Shown one piece after another: positions 4,440 to 32,021 of a stretch of 32,022 nucleotides of DNA. Both the position numbers and the translations under genes were made by a program. The notes beneath the pieces are model-generated. The model worked only from the letters and a program-made list of their open reading frames with translations, ran no database searches and had not been told where the DNA came from. The stretch covers positions 1,121-33,142 of the forward strand of contig DAIQBC010000001.1 in assembly GCA_036781345.1 (NCBI GenBank), written 5' to 3'. The DNA is from Acidimicrobiales bacterium (lineage in GTDB: Bacteria; Actinomycetota; Acidimicrobiia; Acidimicrobiales; VFJN01). Position 1 is the first letter of the stretch, and each line of letters starts with the position of its first letter.

Positions 4440-4495
4440 TGTCTCTGTAGCGACACGCCCGGATCGTCGACAGGTTCTCGAAGAGCCGGCAGGAG

Positions 4496-4652
4496 TGGTG
4501 GGGTTGGGAGGAATCGAATCCTCCGGCCTCCCCCTCATCGGGGGATCGCCGGGTGCGCCACTGACCGCCAAGCCCGCTGGGGTCTTGTGCTCACGACTGA
4601 CCGCCAAGAACATCCATTGTCCACTCTCCCGCGGCCTGGCCGCGGCCTGAGC
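4496..4652 (-). repeat. Degenerate copy of the island distal junction: tRNA-Ile-like 3-prime fragment, TGACCGCC arm repeats and 20-bp palindromic box
   Basis: By-eye alignment to 22778-22952 gives roughly 70% identity. It includes a T-arm-like ggaggattcgattcctcc, an acceptor/CCA-like caaccccacca (minus strand) and two ctgaccgccaag 12-mers (4561-4572, 4597-4608). The stretch ctcccgcggcctggccgcggcctg is identical in both regions. Confidence 0.6.
4630..4649. repeat. 20-bp box cgcggcctggccgcggcctg, copy 1 of 3
   Basis: Exact 20-mer also found at 22930-22949 and 31866-31885. It contains the near-perfect palindrome cgcggcc-t-ggccgcg. Confidence 0.85.
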
Positions 4653-4941
4653 GACCCGTGCGCCACCGCATCGCGGACGTCACAACCCCTACGAGGCCCT
4701 CGCTGAGGACGCCTCGGGCGGGACTGCACTGCTGCCCGCAACGGACATGACGATCGCCGGGATCGTCAGGCGTAGAGCTGGAATCCCATCTCGGCCTTCG
4801 TGAGGCCCAGCTCCTCGCGCCGCCCATCGAGGGCTGGCACCTTGTTCGTCGAGCTGATCGATCCGGCGGCATCTCCTCCGCCGTCGGCGAGCTGCCATTC
4901 GGTCCAGAAGACCGCGACGTCACGCGCGCCGCGGCTGGCCC

Positions 4942-7069: not shown

Positions 7070-7906
7070 TCACGCCGCCCCGGCGACGGCTGACGTGAAC
7101 GCACGTGCTCCGGTCACGGCGAGCTCCTGGTCCTCCGCGGCGGAGGAGGCGCCGCTGACGCCGATGGCCCCGACGACGGTGCCCTCGACGACGAGGGGGA
7201 TGCCGCCCTGAAGGGGCACGGCACCGGCCAGGTGCAGCGCCGACGGTCGGCCCCCGGCCGCCTGGTCTTCGAAGTCCTTGCTCGGGCGCCGGTAGATCGC
7301 GGCCGTCCGGGCCTTGTCGGTGGCCACGCCGACGCTGGCGACCTGTGCCGCATCAGGCCGGCGGACGTAGACGAGCTCGCCCCCGGCATCGACCACGGAG
7401 ACCACAGGGTGCACATCCCGGGTGTCGGCCTCCGCGCCCGCCGCCTCGGCGGCGAGGCGGGCCGCCTCGAAGGTGAGGCCCGGGACCTCCGTGGCCGGGA
7501 GGTCGACGGACGCACCGGCGATCGAGACACCCTCGTCGTCGTCGGGTGTCTCGCCGCTGGTGCCGATGGCGCCCACGACCTCGCCGGCCACGATCAGGGG
7601 GACCCCGCCGGTCAGAGCGGCGGCACCGTGCAGGGCCAGGGCACCGAGGCGACCGGCGCTCACCTGCGCTTCGATGTCCCGGCTCGGCCGCACGAAGATG
7701 GCGGCGGTTCGTGCCTTGTCGATCGCGACCTGGCTGCTGGCCACCTGTGCATCGGCGGTGCGCCGAACCTGCAGGAGGTGGCCGCCGGCGTCGACGATCG
7801 CGATGACGACTCGGTGGCCATGCTCGGCGGCGTGCTTCTCCGCCGCGGCCATCACCGCATCCACGGCACCAGGGTCGAGGACGCGGCGGGTACGGGTCAG
7901 GTTCAT
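7070..7906 (-). CDS. Tandem-duplicated GlcG/HbpS-like (DUF336) heme-binding protein
   Basis: Two internal repeats each carry VDAGGxLxxxRRxDxAQVASxxVAxDKARTAAIxxRPS and GGxPLxVxGxVVGAIGxSG. ATGA overlap with the upstream lactonase gene (7903-7906). Confidence 0.8.
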   Translation of the reverse strand: MNLTRTRRVLDPGAVDAVMAAAEKHAAEHGHRVVIAIVDAGGHLLQVRRTADAQVASSQVAIDKARTAAIFVRPSRDIEAQVSAGRLGALALHGAAALTGGVPLIVAGEVVGAIGTSGETPDDDEGVSIAGASVDLPATEVPGLTFEAARLAAEAAGAEADTRDVHPVVSVVDAGGELVYVRRPDAAQVASVGVATDKARTAAIYRRPSKDFEDQAAGGRPSALHLAGAVPLQGGIPLVVEGTVVGAIGVSGASSAAEDQELAVTGARAFTSAVAGAA

Positions 7907-18961: not shown

Positions 18962-19942
18962 ATGATCCTGACCAGCGATGTCATCCCGATCGAGGTCCAC
19001 CTCGATCCCGGCGAGTGGACTCGGCTCCTCCGGGCCGAGGCCGCGGCGGGCTTGACCGCCACACCCAAGGAGCTGCCGCCGACGTGGCTCTACGACGATC
19101 GTGGCTGCGAGCTCTTCGACGCCATCACCCGGCTCCCCGAGTACTACCCCACCCGAACCGAGCGGGCCATCCTCGCGGAGCGGGCTACCGCCATCGCCAC
19201 CATCACCGGCGCGGACACGCTGATCGAGCTGGGCGCTGGCACATCGGAGAAGACCCGGCTGCTCCTCGACGCCATGACGGCCACAGGTTGCCTCCGCCGC
19301 TTCGTGCTCTTCGACGTCGCCGAGCCCACTCTGCGAGCCACTGCCCAGACCGTGGCCGAGGAGTACCCCGAGATCGAGGTCTCCGGTGTCGTCGGTGACT
19401 TCCGGCGCCACCTTGACCGCATCCCCAACGACGGCCGGCGGCTCATCGCCTTCCTTGGGGGCACCATCGGCAACCTCCAGCCGCCCGACCGAGCATCGCT
19501 CCTCGCTCAGCTGGCTCGCACGATGGCCCCCGGCGACGCGCTGCTCCTCGGCACCGACCTCGTGAAGGAGCCCGACCGGCTCGTCGCCGCCTACGACGAC
19601 ACCGCTGGGGTGACCGCGGCGTTCAACAAGAACGTGCTCGCCGTGCTGAACCGCGAGCTGGGCGCCGACTTCGACCTCGAGCGCTTCGATCACGTCGCTC
19701 GCTTCGACCCTGACGAGCAGCGGATCGAGATGCGGCTCCGAGCCCGGGGCGCCCAAGCCGTGCGGGTCGAAGCCCTGGGCCTCACCTTGGCGTTCGACGA
19801 CGGCGAGGACATCCGAACGGAGATCAGCACCAAGTTCCGCCCTGAGGCCGTTCGGGCCGAGATCGCCGCTGCCGGCCTCGATCTGGTCGCGTGGTGGACC
19901 GACGGCAGCGGTGACTACGGCGTGTCGCTGTCGATCCGATGA
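18962..19942 (+). CDS. egtD: L-histidine N-alpha-methyltransferase (ergothioneine biosynthesis)
   Basis: Close by-eye match to mycobacterial EgtD landmarks: LPPTWLYDDRGCELFDAITRLPEYYPTRTE, ELGAGTSEKTRLLLDAM, FLGGTIGNL and GVTAAFNKNVLAVLNREL. Confidence 0.9.
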   Translation: MILTSDVIPIEVHLDPGEWTRLLRAEAAAGLTATPKELPPTWLYDDRGCELFDAITRLPEYYPTRTERAILAERATAIATITGADTLIELGAGTSEKTRLLLDAMTATGCLRRFVLFDVAEPTLRATAQTVAEEYPEIEVSGVVGDFRRHLDRIPNDGRRLIAFLGGTIGNLQPPDRASLLAQLARTMAPGDALLLGTDLVKEPDRLVAAYDDTAGVTAAFNKNVLAVLNRELGADFDLERFDHVARFDPDEQRIEMRLRARGAQAVRVEALGLTLAFDDGEDIRTEISTKFRPEAVRAEIAAAGLDLVAWWTDGSGDYGVSLSIR

Positions 19943-21111
19943 GCGCCCTCGACTACTGCTCGGTCCGGGCGACCACCGAGCGCCTGGCCGCCCGGCTGGG
20001 GGCAGAGGACCAGACCGTGCAGTCGATGCCGGACGCCTCACCCACGAAGTGGCACCGGGCCCACACCTCGTGGTTCTTCGAGACCTTCGTGCTGCGGCCG
20101 TTCGCCGAGGGCTACGAGGAGGTCGAGCCCGCCTACCGCTTCCTCTTCAACTCCTACTACGAGGCTGTCGGGCCTCGTCACGCGAGGCCGCAGCGCGGGC
20201 TCATCACCCGACCCGGCATCGCCGAGGTGGCTTCCTATCGCCGCCATGTCGACCGGGCCATGCTCACCCTGCTGGACGGCGAGGTGCGCGATCCGGTCGC
20301 GCCGCTGGTCGAGCTCGGGCTCCACCACGAGCAGCAGCACCAGGAGCTGCTGGTGATGGACATCCAGCATGCGCTCTCGTGCAACCCGCTCCTGCCTCGG
20401 TACGGCGAGCTCCCCTGGGCCTCGAGCGAACCGACCGGTGATGGCTGGATCCGGCACGACGGTGGTGTCGTGGAGGTCGGCCACGGGGGCTGCTCGTTCG
20501 CCTTCGACAACGAGGGTCCGAGGCACGAGCAGCTGCTCCGGCCCTTCGAGATCGCCGCCGGCCTGGTGACCAACGGCGACTGGCTGGCCTTCATGGACGA
20601 CGGCGGGTACGAGCGGGCTGAGCTCTGGATGTCCGACGGCTGGCACATGGTGCAGGCGAGCGGGTGGCACAGCCCCGAGTACTGGCACCTCGCAGAGGAC
20701 TCGGCTCTCGTGTTCGGCCTCGAGGGCCTCCGACCGCTCGACCCGGCGGCACCTGTCGCCCACATCAGCTGGTTCGAGGCCGATGCCTACGCACGGTGGG
20801 CCGGCGCGAGGCTCCCGCTGGAGGCCGAGTGGGAGGCCACCGCCCCCGAGCCCGAGGATCGCCGTGCGCCAGGGTGGTACGGCTCGGTCTGGCAGTGGAC
20901 CGCCAGCCCCTACACCGCGTACCCGGGGTTCCGACCCTCAGCCGGGGCCGTCGGTGAGTACAACGGGAAGTTCATGGTCAACCAGCACGTGCTGCGAGGC
21001 TCCTGCCGCGCCACCCCGCCCGGCCACGCCCGCCGTACCTACCGGAACTTCTTCCCAGCCTCGGCTCGCTGGGCCTTCGCCGGGCTGCGCCTCGCCTACG
21101 ACGGCCGGTGA
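19939..21111 (+). CDS. egtB: Hercynine oxygenase / sulfoxide synthase
   Basis: ATGA overlap with egtD. DinB-like N-terminus SPTKWHRAHTSWFFETF and HHEQQHQELL, followed by an FGE-sulfatase-like C-terminus (WQWTASPYTAYPGF, RGSCRATP). Confidence 0.85.
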   Translation: MSALDYCSVRATTERLAARLGAEDQTVQSMPDASPTKWHRAHTSWFFETFVLRPFAEGYEEVEPAYRFLFNSYYEAVGPRHARPQRGLITRPGIAEVASYRRHVDRAMLTLLDGEVRDPVAPLVELGLHHEQQHQELLVMDIQHALSCNPLLPRYGELPWASSEPTGDGWIRHDGGVVEVGHGGCSFAFDNEGPRHEQLLRPFEIAAGLVTNGDWLAFMDDGGYERAELWMSDGWHMVQASGWHSPEYWHLAEDSALVFGLEGLRPLDPAAPVAHISWFEADAYARWAGARLPLEAEWEATAPEPEDRRAPGWYGSVWQWTASPYTAYPGFRPSAGAVGEYNGKFMVNQHVLRGSCRATPPGHARRTYRNFFPASARWAFAGLRLAYDGR

Positions 21112-22777: not shown

Positions 22778-22837
22778 CAGGTCAGGGGTGGTGGGGCTAG
22801 GAAGAATCGAACTTCCGACCTCATCCTTATCAGGGAT
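22778..22837 (-). repeat. att repeat, distal copy (displaced tRNA-Ile 3-prime segment)
   Basis: caggtcaggggtggtggggctaggaagaatcgaacttccgacctcatccttatcagggat is identical over 60/60 nt to 31934-31993. Identity breaks on both sides. Confidence 0.9.
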
Positions 22838-22856
22838 CGACAGGGGTGCGCGCCGT

Positions 22857-22915
22857 TGACCGTCATGCCCTCTGACCTGGGCTTTCGCGTTCTGGAGTGA
22901 CCGCCATTGACCGCC
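22857..22915. repeat. Candidate integrase/Xis arm-type sites TGACCG(C/T)C x3
   Basis: tgaccgtc at 22857-22864. tgaccgcc at 22898-22905 and 22908-22915, a tandem pair at 10-bp spacing. The same 8-mer occurs twice in the related region at 4562-4569 and 4598-4605. Confidence 0.45.
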
Positions 22916-22929
22916 GTTTTCCACCCTCC

Positions 22930-22949
22930 CGCGGCCTGGCCGCGGCCTG
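22930..22949. repeat. 20-bp box cgcggcctggccgcggcctg, copy 2 of 3 (distal arm of the element)
   Basis: Exact 20-mer, located 92 nt inside the distal att repeat. Confidence 0.85.
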
Positions 22950-22976
22950 GAGGTCGCCTCAGAGGACGCCACCCGC

Positions 22977-23648
22977 TCAATATCCGACGAGCAGGATTCC
23001 CTTGAACGGGAGTGTGAGTCGTCCGCTCCAGTGCAGCGCGCGCAGGAACTCGAGTAGCGGCTCGTAGCCGGCGCTGGTTTGTCCGCTCGAGCGATAGGAG
23101 ATCGGGATCATCATCGCCAGGTAGTCCGCGTCGGCGATGAGGCTGGTTCTGAGCAGGTCGCGGAACCCTGCGTTCGACATGACGCCACGACCGGCCTCGA
23201 CCTCGACGACGATCTTCATCTCCGGCTGGTATGCATCGATGTCGTACCTGATCGAGGGAACGCCGTTCTCACCGAAGAGGACCGGTCGTCGGATCAGGCC
23301 AGCCGCGGCCTTTCCCGCTTCGACCTCGTAGTTGAGTGCCTCGAGGCCCGTGCGGAGCTCCTTGAGAACCGTGTCACTCTTCGGTCCGTTCTTGTCGGCC
23401 GATGAGATGGCTCCCTCGGCCGCCGCGACCACCGCTACGAACTGCAGAGCCCAGCCCGGGGGCTCGTCATTGGCTGGGAAGTACTGCCATCTCGGGAACG
23501 CCACTGCCGTAGCTTGTCGCCGTTCGGCCGGTGAAGCTAGCGGCAGAGGCCCGCCGGCGATCCGTTCGCTTGGCTTCCTGTTGAGGCGCTGGTTCGGTCC
23601 CGACAGGTAGTGGGCCTGCCCCAGCCGAACTCTGTCGTCCCGGCGCAC
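22977..23648 (-). CDS. PD-(D/E)XK nuclease candidate, BamHI/BglII-like; no partner methyltransferase
   Basis: Core RYDIDAYQPEMKIVVEVEAGRGVMSNAGFRDLLRTSL fits an acidic D ... E-x-E arrangement followed by an SN...R..L helix, as I recall it for BamHI/BglII-type enzymes. The first ~48 codons have poor codon bias. An alternative GTG start at 23504 would give 175 aa. Confidence 0.45.
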   Translation of the reverse strand: MRRDDRVRLGQAHYLSGPNQRLNRKPSERIAGGPLPLASPAERRQATAVAFPRWQYFPANDEPPGWALQFVAVVAAAEGAISSADKNGPKSDTVLKELRTGLEALNYEVEAGKAAAGLIRRPVLFGENGVPSIRYDIDAYQPEMKIVVEVEAGRGVMSNAGFRDLLRTSLIADADYLAMMIPISYRSSGQTSAGYEPLLEFLRALHWSGRLTLPFKGILLVGY

Positions 23649-23975
23649 CGCGCGAGTTCAGACGAGTTGGTCTTGGCCGAGGTTCTGAGCAAGGTCCCGA
23701 TAGAGGTCCGCGTGGTCATTAGCGGCAGTTGTGCCGCCTGGCTACCGCGCCGAGCTGCCGGGACGACCTCCTGGCTCACCACCGCATGGAGGTCCCGCTA
23801 ACAGTTAGCTCTCGCATAGCGCCTGGGCCACTCAAACGGAGACCCCTCACCAGTTTCACCGTCGCCCCGAGCGGCCATCGAAGTCGGAGCCGGAGCAAGC
23901 TGAGCCTGGTACCTTCGCTCGATCTACAACAGCGGAGAATCGATCTCAAGTGGGTCCCTTGGGAGCTGGGCCGAA

Positions 23976-24707
23976 GTGTCGGTAGCGCGCGAGCCGGCAC
24001 GCGAGGTCCTCCTGCGCCGAGTGTTGAATGCAGCGAAGGAAGACTGGGCGCACACCACAGCGACACAGCGACTGATCCTGATCGTCGTCGCAGTCGGCAT
24101 CGCTTATGAGTGGGGCATCGGCAATGAGATTGTTACCCCCTGGCTGTCCTCGCTCCTACTTGATCGTCTTGGAGACGGAATCGGTGGAGCTCTCGCTGCC
24201 GCTGGGCTCGTGGCGGTATTCACGGCCCTGCAGCAGGTGGCTGTTGGTTGGCTCACGCTTTACGCGATGGCCGTGACTCCCTCAGTCGTCGACACCGCGG
24301 CAGATGCTGTTCGTGCTCGCTTTGGCTTCGTCGTCCCGTCGTGGTGGACGCTTCCAAGGTTTCAGGCCGTTGCCGTGAGCTTCAGTCTCGGTGGAACGTT
24401 CGTCGCGGTCGAGGAATCTCTCGCAGCCGCGCCACGGCGGAGACACACGGTCGTCGTCTCCTCCGTGGTCTGCGCAACAACCGTCTTCGTGGTTGTCGGT
24501 GTCATCGGCGTGCTCGTTCTCGCGTGCGATGGAACGGTTCTCGAAGGCGCTGCGCGGACCCTGATGCGAATCCTGAGCAACCCGATGCCTTGGTGCGTGG
24601 TGGCCATTGGGCCATCGGTCGTCAAGTGGGTACGCGAGAGACACGCGACAACCTCAGCCGGTTCGATCAGTCTTGCCCAGCCACCAGCCGAGGACGAGCC
24701 CCGTTGA
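23976..24707 (+). CDS. Polytopic membrane protein (4-5 TM), hypothetical
   Basis: GTG start with GGGAG 10 nt upstream. Hydrophobic segments include LILIVVAVGIAY, GGALAAAGLVAVFTAL..GWLTLYAMAV, FQAVAVSFSLGGTFVAV, VVVSSVVCATTVFVVVGVIGVLVLA and PWCVVAIGPSVV. Confidence 0.6.
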   Translation: MSVAREPAREVLLRRVLNAAKEDWAHTTATQRLILIVVAVGIAYEWGIGNEIVTPWLSSLLLDRLGDGIGGALAAAGLVAVFTALQQVAVGWLTLYAMAVTPSVVDTAADAVRARFGFVVPSWWTLPRFQAVAVSFSLGGTFVAVEESLAAAPRRRHTVVVSSVVCATTVFVVVGVIGVLVLACDGTVLEGAARTLMRILSNPMPWCVVAIGPSVVKWVRERHATTSAGSISLAQPPAEDEPR

Positions 24708-25531
24708 CAGTTGAGGCGAATCCCTACTCCGCGGACCCCTATGGCACCGATGTACTCGAGGCGTGCGTACATGCGTGCGCTGCCCTTGAGCCTTTCCTAT
24801 ACGAGGTCGCGTACGCGGACATCGGCTCGTCTGAGGTCTACTGCATCAACGAGCCCGGCTCGGAGGCTGCCAACGTCTGCCGAGCGATCGAAGGATTTGT
24901 ATTCGAGCGAGACTGGGGCTTGCCTCCTGCGCACACCGTTGTCGACTTCGCACCATTTGAAGGCAACTCAATCTTCTTCCTGTTGACGACTCGCGTCGAC
25001 GGCCAGAGCCGACCTGTCGGCGTCTTGCGCGTCGCCGATCTCTCGGTAGGGCCTTCAGAGAGCGAGTCGGCGTACCGTGAGCTGATCGGCGACGGTCCCC
25101 TGCCTGCGGAGCTCCGATGGCTACCTGAGGACCGCGGAGTGTGGGACGTGGTTGGCGTCGCCGTGCTTCCTGAGTACCGGAATGGCCTGGAGTCGGCGTG
25201 GCTCTACCACGCCCTTTATCAAGCGAGTCTCGATCGCAGAATCACGCGATGGATCACCAACGTGACGCCGCGCGAGCTTCGAAACCTCCGCGAGTGGATG
25301 GGCATACCGTTCACGGACGTTGGTGAGAGCGGCATATATGTCGGTCCAACGGATGGAGTCGCAACGGAGTTCATCTTCTGTGAATGTCTCGTTGGCGTGA
25401 TCGCTGCTGCAGTGAGCCAGCGGATCGCCGAACTTGAACGCGATGAGAGCGAGATGTCCCTTCTAATTTCGCAAGCGGCGAGCGTTGCACTAACGGGGAG
25501 ATTCCCCCCGCTCCAGCAACTAATGGGGTAG
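24704..25531 (+). CDS. GNAT-fold N-acyltransferase candidate (LuxI/FeeM/OlsB-like)
   Basis: TTG at 24704 overlaps the membrane-protein TGA (TTGA), with GAGGA 9 nt upstream. There is no in-frame ATG until very late. Motifs by eye are CRAIEGFVFERDWGL...VVDFAPFEG...LLTTRVDGQSRPVGVLRVAD and WDVVGVAVLPEYRNG. Confidence 0.45.
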   Translation: MTVEANPYSADPYGTDVLEACVHACAALEPFLYEVAYADIGSSEVYCINEPGSEAANVCRAIEGFVFERDWGLPPAHTVVDFAPFEGNSIFFLLTTRVDGQSRPVGVLRVADLSVGPSESESAYRELIGDGPLPAELRWLPEDRGVWDVVGVAVLPEYRNGLESAWLYHALYQASLDRRITRWITNVTPRELRNLREWMGIPFTDVGESGIYVGPTDGVATEFIFCECLVGVIAAAVSQRIAELERDESEMSLLISQAASVALTGRFPPLQQLMG

Positions 25532-25848: not shown

Positions 25849-28455
25849 TCATCTTCCCCAATCGAGCTCCAGACCGAGGTCGTCTCGCCCCAGCCCGAGC
25901 TCGGGGGTCGGCAACCCAGCGTCGCGGTGCAGGCGGTCGGCGACGCTGAGGGCTGAATAGCGATCAGCTTCGTGAGCAAGGACCCCACCGAGGACGTCCA
26001 CTGGGTCAAGCATGCCTTCGGGGTCGGGGAGCCACGCATGGTTCGCCTCGCGACCCCGGGTGAGGGCGACGTAGGCATGGTTTCGGTTGGTGCCCGGTTC
26101 GATGACGGCGATGCCGATGTCGACGGTGTCGCCTTGGTTGCCGTAGCCGGTGACGGCCCATCCGAGCTCCACGTGGCGGCTGGTGTAGTCGGGAGGCAGC
26201 ACCGCCGTGCCCCGCTCCGGTGCGGTAACAGTGAGCTGGCCTCGGTCATCGATGCGCTCGACGGTCCAGATCTGTCGGTTGCGGACCTGCTGTCCCAGGC
26301 TGGTCTCGAGGGTGCGGTCGTTGCGGCGGGTGGCGATCCGGTCGCCGGCCAGGACGTGGGTGCCGTCGGCGAGCTCGACGCCGCGCTCGCCGAGCCGGTG
26401 TTGTCGGGCTTGGATGGCTTCGTTGATCTCACGGGCGGTGGCGGCGCTGCTGGTGGTGATGGCAACCGACCGGCCCGCGTCGACGTGGCTCCGGTAGGTG
26501 TCGGCGATCCGGTTGGAAAGCAGCGCTGGGTGAGCCGTGTGGAGGCGGTGGTGCTGGTCGTAGAGCTCGACGACGGAGCGCTCCCCGCGCCGCAGTCCGA
26601 GGCTGGCCTCAGCTTCCCATGGCTCGATGAAGCGACGGGGGTCGTCGAGCTCGTGGTGGGGGACGGTCTCGCACCAGTGGGCGAACAGCCCGCCGCGGCC
26701 GACCGAGGGCAGCTGCGCGGGGTCGCCGACGAACACGATCCGCCAGTGCCGGTAGCGGGCGTGGTCGATGAGCTCGGCCAGGTCTTGGGTGGCGGCCATG
26801 CCGGCTTCGTCGACGATGACGGTGGTCCCCATCGGCCACGGCGAGGGCGTCCGGGAGTCGCGGTGGCGGGTGAGGAACCCGGCCAGGGTGTCGGTCGGGC
26901 AGCCGGCCTCGAGGTGCAGCACGTCGGCGGCCTTCCCGGATGGCGCGAGGCCGACAACGGGCCGGTCCCGTTCGCGCAGCTGCTCGACGGCTTGGGCGGT
27001 TGTGCGGGTCTTGCCGGTCCCGGCGGGCCCGACGACCAGGACCAGCCGCGCTGGGCCGGCGATGGCCGCCGCTGCGTCAGCCTGCCGGTCGCCTGAACCG
27101 GGTTCGACGGGGTAGGCGTGCCCGAGCGCCCAGTCCTGCAGCCTGCGCTCCTGTTCGAGGATGTCGATGGTGGTGAGGCGGTGGTCGGTGACGTGCTCGG
27201 CGAAGGGCCGCCCATCCCTTCGCCGGTGGGGTCCTTCCCGCTCCGGGGCGAGCGGGATGCAGCGTTCGACCCCTCGACTGGTGATCTGGTCGACGAGGTC
27301 GACGAGCCCTAGCGCACCGGGTGCGGCGTCGGGCGGGACGAGGGTGGCAACGTGTCGAGCGAGATCGGCGGGCAGCCAGGTCGAAGACTCCTCGGCGACG
27401 CGCCGGACCGCCTCGGTGGCGATCGCATGCTCGTCGGCGGGCGGTCGGGGTCCCGATGCGGGTCCCGATCGTGGTCCCGACGGCCCGAGCTCGGGCAGCT
27501 CGACGCCCAGCGCCCTCGCCTGGTCGCCCCAGGAGCGGTGGAGATCGACGGCGTCGATCCCGTGAGCCTTCGGGGGCCGGGAGGCCAGCACCGCGGCCCG
27601 CGTCAGATGAGCGATCGTCCGGGCATCGGGGTCCGTGCCGTCATGCTCCAGGCTCCAGCGTGCGATCAGCTCGCGCTGCTTCGCCTTGACCTGTGTGGTC
27701 CGCTGCGAGAACGCCTGTCGGACCACCTCCGGGACCCCAGTCAGCTCGGCCTGGCCACCCGCAACGGGGCCCCACTCGACGCCGAGGCGGCCGGTGAGCT
27801 CGCTGCGCAGGGCGGCGTCGTAGACCCAGCCGATCGTGCGCTGCTGGTACTTCAGGAACCGGGCATCGAGCGACAGCCACTTCCCCGTCGGGTCCTGGAC
27901 CTTCGCCGAGATCACGGCATGGGTGTGCAGCTGCGGATCGACAGTCCGGGAGGTGTGCTGCCGGAACAGGGCCGCGGTCACCCCGAGGGTGTCGACCTGA
28001 TGGACGCCCTGTGGTCCGCGGCGGGTCACTCCCCCATGGGTCTGGAACCAGGCCATCGCTGCCTCGACGGCGTGGTCGTGGGCGGCGAGGACCTCCGCCC
28101 GCACCCACGGATCCGGCGTAAGCGCCCACAGCACCGACACCGACTTCGGCGCCGAGAACGTCGCATCGAACCCTCGCACCGACGACTCCCCGAACGACCT
28201 TCCGAGCGCCTCTCCCGTGACCGGATGGGATGCCTCCAGCACCGAACGAAGCGCCTCCGGAGTGACCTCACCCGACACGCCGAGCGCCACCCGACCATCA
28301 CCCCACCAGCGCCCGAGCTGCTCGTCCGGATCGAGGTAGTAGTCCACCGGTCCACGTCCGGGCTTCTCCGGGCCTCGTTCCGCCAGGCCCGCGTAGTACG
28401 CGATCAACCCGCCCACCCCGCCGCCGCTCACCTTGAGCGTCGTCACTCGCATCAT
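25849..28455 (-). CDS. MobF-family conjugative relaxase with C-terminal RecD/TraA-like helicase
   Basis: Start at ATGATG 28455 (MMRVTTLKV). TrwC-type relaxase motifs GFDATFSAPKSVS and the His triad HTSRTVDPQLHTHAVI. Helicase Walker A VVGPAGTGKT and Walker B TVIVDEAGM. Confidence 0.9.
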   Translation of the reverse strand: MMRVTTLKVSGGGVGGLIAYYAGLAERGPEKPGRGPVDYYLDPDEQLGRWWGDGRVALGVSGEVTPEALRSVLEASHPVTGEALGRSFGESSVRGFDATFSAPKSVSVLWALTPDPWVRAEVLAAHDHAVEAAMAWFQTHGGVTRRGPQGVHQVDTLGVTAALFRQHTSRTVDPQLHTHAVISAKVQDPTGKWLSLDARFLKYQQRTIGWVYDAALRSELTGRLGVEWGPVAGGQAELTGVPEVVRQAFSQRTTQVKAKQRELIARWSLEHDGTDPDARTIAHLTRAAVLASRPPKAHGIDAVDLHRSWGDQARALGVELPELGPSGPRSGPASGPRPPADEHAIATEAVRRVAEESSTWLPADLARHVATLVPPDAAPGALGLVDLVDQITSRGVERCIPLAPEREGPHRRRDGRPFAEHVTDHRLTTIDILEQERRLQDWALGHAYPVEPGSGDRQADAAAAIAGPARLVLVVGPAGTGKTRTTAQAVEQLRERDRPVVGLAPSGKAADVLHLEAGCPTDTLAGFLTRHRDSRTPSPWPMGTTVIVDEAGMAATQDLAELIDHARYRHWRIVFVGDPAQLPSVGRGGLFAHWCETVPHHELDDPRRFIEPWEAEASLGLRRGERSVVELYDQHHRLHTAHPALLSNRIADTYRSHVDAGRSVAITTSSAATAREINEAIQARQHRLGERGVELADGTHVLAGDRIATRRNDRTLETSLGQQVRNRQIWTVERIDDRGQLTVTAPERGTAVLPPDYTSRHVELGWAVTGYGNQGDTVDIGIAVIEPGTNRNHAYVALTRGREANHAWLPDPEGMLDPVDVLGGVLAHEADRYSALSVADRLHRDAGLPTPELGLGRDDLGLELDWGR

Positions 28456-28684
28456 CGGATCACGCCCCGAAGCCGCGCTCTGGGTCGTGCCCCGGCCAGT
28501 GCACCCGTCTGCCTCATGTAGGGATAGGCCTGCGGAGGGCCGAACTGTCGCGACGATCGCGCCGACGGAGCGCTCATGGCGAGGCCAAGGTGGAGCCGGA
28601 CGAGCTAGTGGACCACGGCCCTGACATGGCCAGCAGCGGGGCGACGAACGGCCCAGGGGTCCGCTCGGTGGCAACCCGGCGCTG

Positions 28685-29331: not shown

Positions 29332-29366
29332 CCGCACGGAACTGCCGGTAAGGACAACGCGGATCC

Positions 29367-29414
29367 CGATCGGGAACTTGATCGGGACTTCGATCGGGAC
29401 CCTGATCAGACCGT
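29367..29414 (+). repeat. Iteron array 1: 12-bp-phased (c/t)GATCGGGA(a/c) x3 plus one degenerate unit
   Basis: cgatcgggaact (29367), tgatcgggactt (29379), cgatcgggaccc (29391), tgatcagaccgt (29403). A GGATCC lies immediately upstream at 29361-29366. Confidence 0.8.
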
Positions 29415-29455: not shown

Positions 29456-29507
29456 CCATCCGACCTGACTGTGTCCACGACTGCCGCCGCGGGCACACTT
29501 GCCTGCA

Positions 29508-29879
29508 ATGGAGACGATCGACCAGAACCGAATCGCGAAGCCTCGGGTTGGGTGGGTCGTCTGCGGCGTGCTGGCGGTTGCCCTCTTGGCGGCCGGAGGC
29601 TTCTACGCGTTCAGAGACACCAGCGAGCCCTGCTACCAGACGACGATGAACACGCCAGATCCCGATCCGAAGCCAACCGCTGAAGCGGCTGCGATGTCCT
29701 TCCTGACTCTCGATGGTTGGCCCGACGAGTTCGTGGATGATCTCGGCCATTACGAACAGACCACGACTGCCGAGGGCATCGAGTTCGCTACCGGTGGGTC
29801 ACCCTCGGCGGAGTTTCGAGTGATCGAGAGTGGCGCTGGTTGGATCGTCGTTGGGGTGGCCCTGACGTGTCCAACCTGA
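29508..29879 (+). CDS. Small membrane-anchored hypothetical protein
   Basis: ATG at 29508 (METIDQNRIAKPRVGWVVCGVLAVALLAAGGFYAF). One N-terminal TM, then an acidic ~80-aa domain. No clear RBS. Confidence 0.5.
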   Translation: METIDQNRIAKPRVGWVVCGVLAVALLAAGGFYAFRDTSEPCYQTTMNTPDPDPKPTAEAAAMSFLTLDGWPDEFVDDLGHYEQTTTAEGIEFATGGSPSAEFRVIESGAGWIVVGVALTCPT

Positions 29880-29934: not shown

Positions 29935-29992
29935 TGAGGTCCTCGTGATCCCAAGTGCTTCGTCGCAGGCCCCGGTTCGGCCGGTATCCCCT

Positions 29993-30040
29993 GAGTTGGG
30001 ACCTCGATTGGGACCGCCATCGGGACCTAGATCGGGACCG
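29993..30040 (+). repeat. Iteron array 2: 12-bp-phased nnAT(c/t)GGGACCn x4
   Basis: gagttgggacct (29993), cgattgggaccg (30005), ccatcgggacct (30017), agatcgggaccg (30029), followed by degenerate units. It lies directly upstream of xis. Confidence 0.8.
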
Positions 30041-30104
30041 TCATCGCGCACGATCCGGCCGGGACGCCAGCCAGCGACCCTCCACTCCTGCCTGGAGGTA
30101 CCCC

Positions 30105-30323
30105 GTGCCGATCGATCGTTCGACCCCGCCCCTGCTCCCCAATCGCCTCGTCGGCATCGGCGAGGTCGCCGACCTGCTCGGCGTCGAGGTTCGTCACGTC
30201 CGCCGGCTCGTTGCCGAACGCCGCATCCCGTTCATCAAGTGGGGGCACCTGGTTCGGTTCGACCCTCTCGAGCTCGCCGCTTGGATCGACGAGCACCGGC
30301 TGGCGTCAGGACCGTCGCGATGA
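30105..30323 (+). CDS. xis: Excisionase-family DNA-binding protein (MerR-like winged HTH)
   Basis: GTG at 30105 with GGAGG 6 nt upstream. LVGIGEVADLLGVEVRHVRRLVAERRIPFIKWGHLVRFDPLELAAWI is a typical HTH_17/excisionase signature. The longer track ORF (from 29955) merely translates the iterons. Confidence 0.8.
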   Translation: MPIDRSTPPLLPNRLVGIGEVADLLGVEVRHVRRLVAERRIPFIKWGHLVRFDPLELAAWIDEHRLASGPSR

Positions 30324-30418: not shown

Positions 30419-31549
30419 GTGGCGCACGTCGAGAAGCGAGGGCCCTCCCGTTGGAGGGCTCGATACCGGGGACCTGACGGGCGAGAGCGGTCGATGACGT
30501 TCGATCGGCGCGCAGACGCCGACCGGTGGCTCGCGGCGAACGAGATCGCTAAGGCCCGCAGCGAGTGGATCGACCCGAGCTTGGGTCGCTGCACGTTCGC
30601 CACCTGGGCAGAGCAGTGGAAGACCACGCTCGTCGATCTGCGGCCGGCCACGCGAGACCGTGATCTTCGGATCCTCCGAGTGCACCTGGTCCCCCACTTC
30701 GGGACCATGCCCCTCGCCAAGATCACGCGTGGGACCGTCGTCGGGTTCGTCAGCGGGATGCTCGCCGCTGGCGACCATGCACCCGCGACGGTCCGGAAAG
30801 TCGGCCAGGTCCTCAACAAGGTCCTGAAGGCGGCCGTCGAGGCGGGCCTGATCACCAGGTCACCGAGCGACGGGGTCCGGCTGCCCGCCGAAGGGCGACG
30901 CGAGATGGCCTTCCTCACCCCAGACCAGGTCAATCTCCTCGCCACGGCCGTTGGCCCGGAATGGGAGGCTCTTGTCCTCACCGCGGCCTACACCGGACTC
31001 CGGTGGGGCGAGCTGGCCGGCCTCCGGGTCGGACGAGTCGATCTCGCCCGACGGACGGTGACGGTGGTCGAGCAGCTGAACGAGCTCAGCGGGCAGCTGG
31101 AGTTCGGGCCCCCGAAGACAGCGGCCGGCCGAAGGGCCGTCTCGCTCCCCGTCCTGCTGACGGAGCTCCTCGCGGTCCAGCTCGAGCGATCCGAGGTGGT
31201 TCGCAGCGGACTGGTGTTCCCGACGCCGGTGGGCGAGCCGATGCGGCGATCCAACTTCGCTCGACGGGTCTGGGCACCGGCAGTCAGGGCGCTCGAGCTC
31301 GACGGTCTGCGCTTCCACGACCTCCGGCACACCGCGGTGGCCATAGCAATCGCCCAGGGCGCCCATCCGAAGACGCTCCAGCAGCGGATGGGCCACAGCT
31401 CCGTGACCGTCACGCTCGATCGGTACGGGCACCTCTACGACGGCCTCGACGCCCAAGTCGCGGACTCACTCGACCAGGTCCTGCGAACTTCGCGCGGCAT
31501 GAGCGCTCCGTCCCCGCCGGCGGCTGGCGAGCCGCTGCGGCTGCTCTGA
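30419..31549 (+). CDS. int: Tyrosine-type site-specific integrase
   Basis: GTG start. N-terminal SAM-like and core-binding region. Catalytic landmarks TGLRWGELAGL (Arg), HDLRHTAV (H-x-x-R) and GHSSVTVTLDRYGHL (His, Tyr). Confidence 0.9.
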   Translation: MAHVEKRGPSRWRARYRGPDGRERSMTFDRRADADRWLAANEIAKARSEWIDPSLGRCTFATWAEQWKTTLVDLRPATRDRDLRILRVHLVPHFGTMPLAKITRGTVVGFVSGMLAAGDHAPATVRKVGQVLNKVLKAAVEAGLITRSPSDGVRLPAEGRREMAFLTPDQVNLLATAVGPEWEALVLTAAYTGLRWGELAGLRVGRVDLARRTVTVVEQLNELSGQLEFGPPKTAAGRRAVSLPVLLTELLAVQLERSEVVRSGLVFPTPVGEPMRRSNFARRVWAPAVRALELDGLRFHDLRHTAVAIAIAQGAHPKTLQQRMGHSSVTVTLDRYGHLYDGLDAQVADSLDQVLRTSRGMSAPSPPAAGEPLRLL

Positions 31550-31865
31550 GACAGCCAGAGCAGGCACGGCAGGGTTCCGACGAACCAACGTCGATCACGG
31601 CGTCGGTCTCACGAACCCCGTCGTGTGAGACTCCGTCGATGGTCAAGACCGGGGCCCGAGCGTCGGCTCTGGCGTTGCTGCTCGAGCGGATCGGACGGCC
31701 GCTCACGTCGAGCCGACGTCCTGCGCCGCGGATCGGTCCACGACCTCGTCGGTGACCGCTCGCTGGAGGCGGTGCTCCGTGACCCGAGCAAGGTCGATCT
31801 GGACGCGCTCAGGACCCTTCTCGAGGCCCGAACCGCGTGAGTCCTCGCGGCCTCCGCGAAATTCT

Positions 31866-31933: not shown

Positions 31934-31993
31934 CAGGTCAGGGGTGGTGGGGCTAGGAAGAATCGAACTTCCGACCTCATCCTTATCAGGGAT
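31934..31993 (-). repeat. att repeat, tRNA-proximal copy
   Basis: Identical over 60/60 nt to 22778-22837. Covers tRNA positions from the anticodon stem to CCA (31945-31993) plus 11 nt downstream. Confidence 0.9.
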
Positions 31994-32021
31994 GCGCTCT
32001 AACCGACTGAGCTATAGCCCC
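31945..32021 (-). tRNA. tRNA-Ile (anticodon GAU), CCA encoded
   Basis: Minus strand folds by hand as GGGGCTA-TA-GCTC-AGTCGGTTA-GAGC-G-CATCC-CTGATAA-GGATG-AGGTC-GGAAG-TTCGATT-CTTCC-TAGCCCC-A-CCA. 77 nt with a canonical cloverleaf. The anticodon loop CT-GAT-AA gives GAT. Confidence 0.9.

Follow-up and report, generated by a model that had tools for sequence, protein, structure and literature searches.

The restriction endonucleases of the BamHI fold with solved structures, namely BamHI, OkrAI, BglII and BstYI, are to our knowledge all ordinary Type IIP enzymes that cut unmodified DNA. BamHI-type homodimers read palindromes, and the active site exists in several variants: Glu-x-Glu in BamHI and OkrAI, E-x-Q in BglII and E-x-K in BstYI. 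BamHI is encoded next to an N4-cytosine methylase and a controller protein. Here we describe a nuclease gene lacking such a companion methylase, located in a 32,022-nucleotide stretch of DNA from an Acidimicrobiales bacterium (GenBank assembly GCA_036781345.1, contig DAIQBC010000001.1, positions 1,121 to 33,142). This whole stretch is referred to below as the window, and its numbering is used for all positions. The gene is cargo of an island that is a 9.2-kb integrative mobilizable element inserted in a tRNA-Ile gene. Its product is best read as a stand-alone member of an uncharacterised family of small (~175 amino acids) restriction endonucleases with the BamHI/OkrAI/BglII/BstYI fold.

Solitary restriction-enzyme genes as such are already known: 272 were analysed by Ershova et al. 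(2012, PMC3488263), and 731 on chromosomes and 23 on plasmids were reported by Oliveira et al. (2014, PMC4176335). Those studies account for them by a methylase located at a distance, by silencing, or by a functional change (PMC3488263, PMC4176335). A homologue of the present protein already bears a restriction-enzyme name in one database, where a UniRef entry is called "Restriction endonuclease BglII". The initial annotation of the locus, which was made from the sequence letters, held that an unprotected restriction enzyme on a mobile element would be unusual; this was overstated, as solitary genes are documented and, in the family described here, about 70% of the 83 surveyed loci are solitary.

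Predicted fold and extent of the nuclease gene

An AlphaFold2 model of the nuclease, built on the family alignment, had a mean predicted local distance difference test score (pLDDT) of 94.2 and a predicted template modeling score (pTM) of 0.90. When it was compared to the PDB using Foldseek the top 16 matches were all chains of OkrAI, BglII, BstYI or BamHI, with probabilities of 0.69 to 1.0 (1.0 for the top five) and query TM-scores of 0.43 to 0.58, and the next match had a probability of 0.11. At the level of the predicted structure these results, together with the invariance of the acidic residues described below, confirm the BamHI/BglII/BstYI-type PD-(D/E)XK fold that the initial annotation had recognized in a D...ExE arrangement. 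The catalytic candidates E62, D90, E101 and E103 (numbering of the 175-amino acid protein) sit on predicted strands of the model and are invariant in the 44-sequence family alignment and in all 73 genome copies examined. G105, R106, G107, R115, D116 and R119 are also invariant in that alignment, and N111 is nearly so. E62, D90 and E101-x-E103 correspond to BamHI E77, D94 and E111-x-E113; for D94, E111 and E113 the alignment is based on motifs and on an hhalign match that is not significant by itself. By eye, DIDAY resembles the BamHI sequence PIDVY (D94) and VEVEAGR resembles MEFETGN (E111, E113); the BamHI sequence used was checked and is identical to that of 1BAM. Sequence databases were less informative. 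PADLOC, PHROGs and the PDB sequences returned no match for the nuclease protein or its homologues, and a profile of 44 family members found among the PDB sequences the ribosomal protein bS6 only, a spurious match. A precomputed Pfam tag, PF26497.1, is present on some homologues.

The maximal open reading frame (ORF), to which the initial annotation referred, does exist at 22977-23648 on the minus strand; it starts with GTG, would code for 223 amino acids and contains the series DIDAY...IVVEVEAGRG...N..FRDLL. The gene is most likely shorter, with a predicted coding sequence of 175 amino acids that begins at a conserved GTG at position 23504. This assignment is based on four observations. Homologues are mostly 175-185 amino acids long and, among the best 120 of 442, align to the C-terminal 78% of the maximal ORF only. 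The nucleotide similarity to the two closest relatives (blastn) ends at position 23540, about 36 bp upstream of the invariant GTG, and the N-terminal extensions of these relatives (P0002 and P0003) are unrelated to that of the window. The GC content at the three codon positions is coding-like from 22977 to 23504 (0.65/0.45/0.80) and not coding-like from 23505 to 23648 (0.77/0.58/0.71). Finally, the NCBI member of the same 90%-identity protein cluster (P0123), which is probably the same gene, has 175 amino acids and fits the shorter form.

Conservation of the nuclease in related islands

The closest relatives of the nuclease were found in the loci L003 (90% amino-acid identity) and L087 (87%), both of which are variants of the same tRNA-Ile island. 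The window, L003 and L087 have in common the att sequence, a terminal arm of about 115 bp, and a DUF7255 gene near the other end, and L087 also has the integrase and Xis genes of the window's island at 81% nucleotide identity. The cargo regions are entirely different: L003 includes an apparently complete second restriction-modification (R-M) system (a 290-amino acid PD-ExK-like protein, a C5 methylase and Vsr) in addition to GmrSD, RelA/SpoT and AIPR; L087 includes ApeA, DUF4062 genes and a frameshifted integrase; and the window, unlike both, has TrwC and two genes without known function. The L087 nuclease (748-1356) has a duplication of two residues, VE, in the catalytic E-x-E strand (VVEVEVEAGRG), and the integrase alongside is the one split by the frameshift.

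The nuclease gene and the 36 bp upstream form a block that is placed differently in the three islands. In L003 and L087 the nuclease diverges from the adjoining DUF7255 gene, at a distance of 54-95 bp. In the window it is found at the end away from the DUF7255 remnant and directly adjoins the terminal arm, which abuts the nuclease stop codon on its downstream side and shares 90% identity with the end of L003. Of all the genes, only the nuclease is intact in the three islands, and in the comparison with its two closest relatives the ratio of nonsynonymous to synonymous substitutions (dN/dS) is about 0.07 at a synonymous divergence (dS) of about 0.9. As judged from these sequence comparisons, the nuclease is retained for its protein function and is under strong purifying selection.

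This history bears on a suggestion already made in the initial annotation, that the gene is an inactivated relic. In the form considered here the frame would be intact and the gene silent, or the enzyme inactive, after a recent loss of its methylase and native promoter. Only 36 bp upstream of the start are common to the relatives, which suggests that the promoter region is foreign; no obvious Shine-Dalgarno sequence was seen by eye and no consensus promoter was found, the scan for promoters and terminators being empty, and such a scan is uninformative in high-GC actinobacteria. The partner-like DUF7255 gene is degraded, stops or frameshifts occur in some family members from metagenome-assembled genomes (sequencing error is possible), and the loss of an upstream methylase gene may silence solitary restriction-enzyme genes (Ershova et al., PMC3488263). 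On the other hand, all the invariant residues are present, the low dN/dS has been maintained over a considerable dS, the codon usage is coding-like, and the identical protein was recovered in other samples. We therefore regard a relic as improbable.

Distribution of the family and gene neighbourhoods

When one genome was scanned for each of 185,579 species, 112 relatives came to light, and a profile search of 1.84 billion representative proteins led to 1,234 clusters at 50% identity. The family is rare and patchy, a pattern typical of defence genes, being found mostly in Actinomycetota and also in Chloroflexota, Acidobacteriota, Myxococcota and Thaumarchaeota. There was one match in the plasmid collection (38% identity, Bacillus), and no relative among the BFVD viral structures or in the phage database.

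To describe the neighbourhoods, genes were called in 83 non-redundant loci and 734 neighbouring ORFs were clustered. No partner gene is conserved across the family in this set, where only C5 methylases, Vsr and integrases recur. The idea put forward in the initial annotation that the nuclease could be the effector of a defence system other than R-M, taken here as a multi-gene system, was thus not supported: methylases and Vsr are the only neighbours that recur in the family in this sense, and the cargo genes adjacent to it in the window have no homologues in the other loci. C5 DNA methylases are the top neighbour family, with 6 of 139 and 5 of 148 proteins in two batches (within 2.5 kb, Pfam). 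They were found within 1.2 kb of the nuclease in 16 of the 83 loci and within 8 kb in 19. N4/N6 or Dam-class methylases were found within about 1.1 kb in three loci, directly adjoining the nuclease in two of them, and at a greater distance in two. A methylase of any kind is present within 1.2 kb in 19 loci (~23%), and about 70% of the loci have no detectable methylase within 8 kb; the number of methylase-positive loci is a lower bound, since some contigs are short. All 57 copies without a nearby methylase retain E62, D90, E101 and E103. Other contexts included integrases, transposases, TrwC, GmrSD, AIPR, ApeA, OLD/AAA_21, SIR2, HerA and NERD.

In L039 a Dam-class methylase gene is located 200 bp downstream of the nuclease on the same strand. 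In the Nocardioides/Marmoricola loci L016, L018, L020 and L023 the nuclease is flanked on one side by a C5 methylase, 73-86 bp upstream on the same strand, and on the other by Vsr. The last three are about 2 kb from tRNA-Ile(GAT) and tRNA-Ala genes and have a homologue of the TrwC relaxase, and L018 has one of the integrase as well; L016, a short contig, has tRNA-Ala only. In these four loci and in L076, a protein with an MTaX1 domain, the C5 methylase, the nuclease and Vsr stay together, in a different order in L076. A role in the discrimination of modified DNA has been proposed for MTaX1 (PMC10853773).

The recurrence of Vsr, present nearby in 14 of the 83 loci, could be taken to mean that the nuclease is a repair-type enzyme acting with Vsr-like endonucleases on 5-methylcytosine-linked damage. 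One of these loci, L032, has a nuclease-Vsr pair 29 bp apart and no methylase within 8 kb, and in L003 and L087 the neighbouring DUF7255 gene contains a motif that appeared Vsr/DUF559-like by eye. In most of the loci with Vsr, however, nearby C5 methylases explain its adjacency, and the majority of the family has neither Vsr nor a methylase. We know of no precedent for a repair role in the BamHI-fold family, and a function of this kind appears very unlikely.

Mode of action and protection of the host

By analogy with its characterised structural relatives, the nuclease would act as an Mg2+-dependent homodimer on a short palindromic site, cutting both strands and restricting incoming DNA, and the relatives that belong to methylase-nuclease-Vsr modules suggest that base methylation would block cleavage. 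Should the nuclease cleave a site of this kind when it is unmodified, methylation by the host would be required. No DNA methyltransferase is detectable in the 32 kb of the window, in agreement with the initial annotation: 28 long ORFs, picked for their length and codon-position GC, were scanned with Pfam and gave none, and neither a six-frame search with a hidden Markov model of C5 methylases nor a scan for motif IV found any. The sole methyltransferase seen in the window is EgtD, a histidine methyltransferase unrelated to DNA. A methyltransferase gene in another part of the genome would then have to provide protection, and the nuclease would be part of a split R-M system or would rely on a resident methylase. 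We prefer the interpretation that the protein is a functional Type II-like restriction nuclease that is solitary and is protected by methylation from an unlinked gene, since the methylase-nuclease-Vsr modules and every solved relative speak positively for it. We hold it tentatively, with somewhat less than even confidence.

A number of findings weigh against this interpretation. The proportion of loci without a methylase is far above what is expected for a classical Type II family, and within Curtobacterium and Demequina the nuclease is passed on as a lone copy. A nuclease that is sensitive to methylation would be dangerous for a transferable element to carry unless its methylase came along, yet this one has been kept since the island variants diverged. 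The C5 methylases adjacent to family members are 15-30% identical in the target-recognition region, with the exception of two related pairs. The nucleases are at least 45% identical, and their putative DNA-contact block (R106/N111/R115/D116/R119) is nearly unvarying. In a test of methylase-nuclease co-evolution the correlation came from one clade, outside which the target-recognition regions are unrelated. Some of the methylases also have rival candidate partners, recognized by eye or by Pfam: the 290-amino acid protein of L003 (D...SxK), a 271-amino acid protein of L026 (PD...DIK), a GHKL-like protein in L072, a ParB-like protein in L041, and the MTaX1 protein of the Nocardioides group. Since isoschizomer families pair with methylases of different chemical classes, the heterogeneity of the methylases leaves cognate pairing possible.

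The host DNA of the window and the sequence comparisons add to these objections. GGATCC is not depleted in the host DNA (15 observed, 17 expected), and RGATCY is mildly depleted (29 observed, 40 expected). A palindrome-avoidance scan of the window, in which CGATCG was the most depleted, found no 6-mer missing; 32 kb gives such a scan little power. The initial annotation had proposed that the fold be checked by structure and by Pfam; the structure search retrieved OkrAI, BglII, BstYI and BamHI as anticipated, and the Pfam BamHI (PF02923) and BglII (PF09195) families gave no match in Pfam/NCBIfam searches up to an E value of 10. The hhalign alignment with BamHI has E101/E103 on E111/E113, in the same register as the motifs, with an E value of 0.26, which is not significant.

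Several of the same observations would be accounted for by a defence nuclease that is safe for its host independently of a methylase, for instance a modification-dependent (Type IIM/IV-like) enzyme, for which a short site would be a target only if it carried a foreign modification. The trigger could be, for example, adenine methylation absent from the host, in which case no partner gene would be needed and the nuclease could travel alone. The high frequency of loci without a methylase within 8 kb and the invariance of the catalytic residues in lone copies are consistent with this possibility, as is the low dN/dS in a clade where two of the three islands show no methylase. Defence-island or mobile-element contexts are frequent in the family, the C5 methylases found nearby are unrelated in their target-recognition regions and in many cases have a candidate nuclease of their own, and the gene is a discrete 565-bp unit that has been relocated within related islands. 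Most of this support is nevertheless negative evidence. The Pfam scan and the AlphaFold model show a single 175-amino acid domain to which no modification reader has been added, and there is no similarity to known modification-dependent families among PADLOC or Pfam matches or among Foldseek matches above a probability of 0.3. Furthermore, the methylase-nuclease-Vsr order in Nocardioides resembles a classical R-M-Vsr module, L039 has its Dam-class methylase close by on the same strand, and all the solved structural relatives cut unmodified DNA. We consider the methylase-independent enzyme nearly as likely as the interpretation that we prefer, though less than probable. An extension of this idea is that the whole family would represent the first BamHI-fold nucleases to work without a methylase, a single-gene, self-safe defence that cuts, for example, a GATC-type site only when it is foreign-methylated and that spreads as a cassette of about 0.6 kb through the defence islands and mobilizable elements found in Actinomycetota and further soil phyla; this, too, is less than probable.

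Organization of the island and its surroundings

The features of the island are listed in Table 1. Its limits are defined by perfect 60-bp direct repeats of the tRNA-Ile 3' end located 9,156 bp apart, which together with the integrase, the Xis-like protein and the TrwC relaxase bear out the assignment of the gene to a mobile island in the initial annotation.

Table 1. Features of the mobilizable island and its integration target (window coordinates).
Feature	Position	Strand	Basis or remarks
attL, 60-bp repeat, copy of the tRNA-Ile 3' end plus 11 nt	22778..22837		Repeat search, family D2
Terminal arm of the island, conserved, with hairpin motif CCGCGGCCTGGCCGCGGCC at 22927-22955	22838..22976		blastn
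Nuclease gene, BamHI/BglII-fold PD-(D/E)XK endonuclease (predicted)	22977..23504	-	ORF, homologue lengths, AlphaFold, Foldseek, codon-position GC
565-bp block, gene plus 36 bp upstream, ~81% identical to L003/L087, placed differently there	22976..23540	-	blastn
Upstream extension of the maximal ORF, probably untranslated	23505..23648	-	Unconserved in P0002/P0003, GC pattern
Two cargo ORFs: 243 amino acids, membrane-like, and 286 amino acids, GNAT-like motifs (both by eye)	23976..25531	+	Lowest-GC stretch
TrwC-type relaxase fused to SF1 helicase	25849..28674	-	Pfam TrwC 1.4e-74, AAA_30 8.4e-49
Iteron array 3, within the relaxase gene, with three perfect copies of the TCGGGAC core	27450..27480	-	
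Iteron array 1, GATCGGGAC-type units, 12-bp period, upstream of ORF 29499-29879	29361..29414	+	
Xis-like HTH_17 protein, start probably later than 29955	29955..30323	+	Pfam HTH_17, residues 68-114
Iteron array 2, T(C/T)GGGACC units, upstream of the Xis-like gene	29996..30046	+	
Tyrosine integrase	30419..31549	+	Pfam Phage_integrase, Phage_int_M, Phage_int_SAM_3; 81% nucleotide identity to L087
DUF7255 gene remnant, 435-bp internal deletion, between integrase and attR	31621..31840	+	blastn, phmmer, Pfam tags
attR, second 60-bp copy, overlaps the tRNA gene	31934..31993		Repeat search
tRNA-Ile(GAT), integration target	31945..32021	-	ARAGORN; Rfam 76.9 bits

Two further small ORFs are present within the island, and no coupling-protein, FtsK or type IV secretion system domains were detected by Pfam among its ORFs. 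The two cargo ORFs that adjoin the nuclease have no Pfam, PADLOC or PHROGs match and no homologue in 87 other loci. They have the lowest GC content of the island (61%, at 24.0-25.5 kb), while the nuclease gene has 63% and the window about 70%, so that the location of the nuclease in the lowest-GC part, as described in the initial annotation, is approximate. The N- and C-terminal parts of the DUF7255 remnant match the intact 212-amino acid gene of L003. The DUF7255 motif GVIVELDEELHF looked Vsr/DUF559-like by eye, and DUF7255 resisted classification.

The initial annotation described iterons with GATC cores and a GGATCC, which hinted that the nuclease could recognize its own element. GATC is indeed found in every unit of array 1, which also contains one GGATCC, but in only one of the five units of array 2. 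The conserved core is not GATC but the asymmetric sequence TCGGGAC, in 12-bp direct repeats. Three arrays were found where chance would give 0.01, and the island holds 11 of the 14 exact cores present in the window. One exact core with degenerate neighbours is located at 23675-23709, about 170-215 bp upstream of the nuclease start. No such arrays were found in 87 other loci, 83 of which have a nuclease homologue. The arrays are probably binding sites for an element-encoded regulator or recombination-directionality factor and not targets of the nuclease. That the weak copy upstream of the nuclease ties its expression to the regulation of the element is speculative.

The GATC in each unit of array 1, its GGATCC, and the core located upstream of the gene would fit an element-specific DNA-processing enzyme that recognizes the iterons or the att region. 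Asymmetric direct repeats are, however, ill-suited to a BamHI-type homodimer, GATC is infrequent in array 2, the arrays are absent from the 87 other loci, and L003 and L087 have the nuclease but not the iteron regions. In addition, the relaxase, integrase and Xis already cover the processing of the element's DNA. A role in self-recognition thus found no support, and we give this possibility hardly any weight.

Outside the island, positions 4470-4680 include a diverged copy (~72%) of the att-like sequence, with a terminal arm of about 115 bp (4498-4649) and the CCGCGGCCTGGCCGCGGCC hairpin. This intergenic copy, far from the island, may be what is left of an earlier insertion by an island of this family. 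The chromosomal flank at 18962-21111 (plus strand) includes ergothioneine biosynthesis genes, coding for EgtD and an EgtB-like protein with FGE-sulfatase and DinB_2 domains. By its EgtD homologues, the window belongs near uncultured Acidimicrobiia/Acidimicrobiales known from soil metagenomes. A tRNA-Gln predicted by ARAGORN at 7575-7652 (minus strand), inside an HbpS-like ORF, was not confirmed by Rfam and is probably a false positive.

Significance and comparison with known systems

If the nuclease is a classical enzyme, it would contribute a further uncharacterised Type II specificity, this one from Acidimicrobiia-like bacteria that are uncultured, and would be a clean case of a nuclease that is kept on a mobile element and depends on methylation encoded elsewhere, which bears on the movement and tolerance of R-M genes. 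If it works independently of a methylase, it would define a new mode of self/non-self discrimination in one of the best-studied restriction-enzyme folds, and possibly a useful reagent. The practical value is modest until the enzyme is assayed. The proteins of the family are small and easily expressed, and cultured hosts exist: Nocardioides endophyticus, Demequina, Curtobacterium and Pseudonocardia alni.

The best structural match of the nuclease is OkrAI, a small isoschizomer of BamHI (GGATCC; 3ODH), with an E value of 1.9e-4 and a TM-score of 0.58; BamHI (1BHM, 2BAM) ranks lower. With these two enzymes the nuclease shares the acidic E...D...E-x-E site with Glu at the "K" position, and the IDxY and ExExG motifs. 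It differs from them in its low identity (12-18%), its size (175 compared to 194-213 amino acids), and the absence of a PF02923 match. The residues that follow the E-x-E strand, GRGxxxNAxYRD, differ from the BamHI recognition segment GNISSAHR, and the specificity can therefore not be deduced from that of BamHI. Unlike BamHI, the nuclease of the window has no adjacent methylase or controller protein. BglII (AGATCT, 1D2I) and BstYI (RGATCY, 1VRR) belong to the same fold family and were second and third in the Foldseek ranking, with a probability of 1.0; the nuclease has E-x-E where these have E-x-Q and E-x-K, and does not match PF09195.

The likeness to DpnI-type Type IIM and Type IV enzymes is a functional analogy only: a single gene without a methylase in a defence-island context. 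Unlike DpnI, Mrr, McrA and GmrSD, with which it has no structural or sequence match, the nuclease lacks a separate modification-reading domain. It is comparable to the documented solitary genes in that it is a full-length Type II-like nuclease without an adjacent methylase and has orthologues beside methylases elsewhere; it departs from them in that being solitary is the condition of the family majority (~70%) and in that the gene is carried by an apparently intact mobilizable element. The modules of L016, L018, L020, L023 and L076 carry a C5 methylase, Vsr and an MTaX1-domain protein, none of which is found in the window's island. They are built around a member of the same nuclease family, with 48-51% identity to that of the window, and in L018, L020 and L023 they are found in a similar tRNA-Ile(GAT) island.

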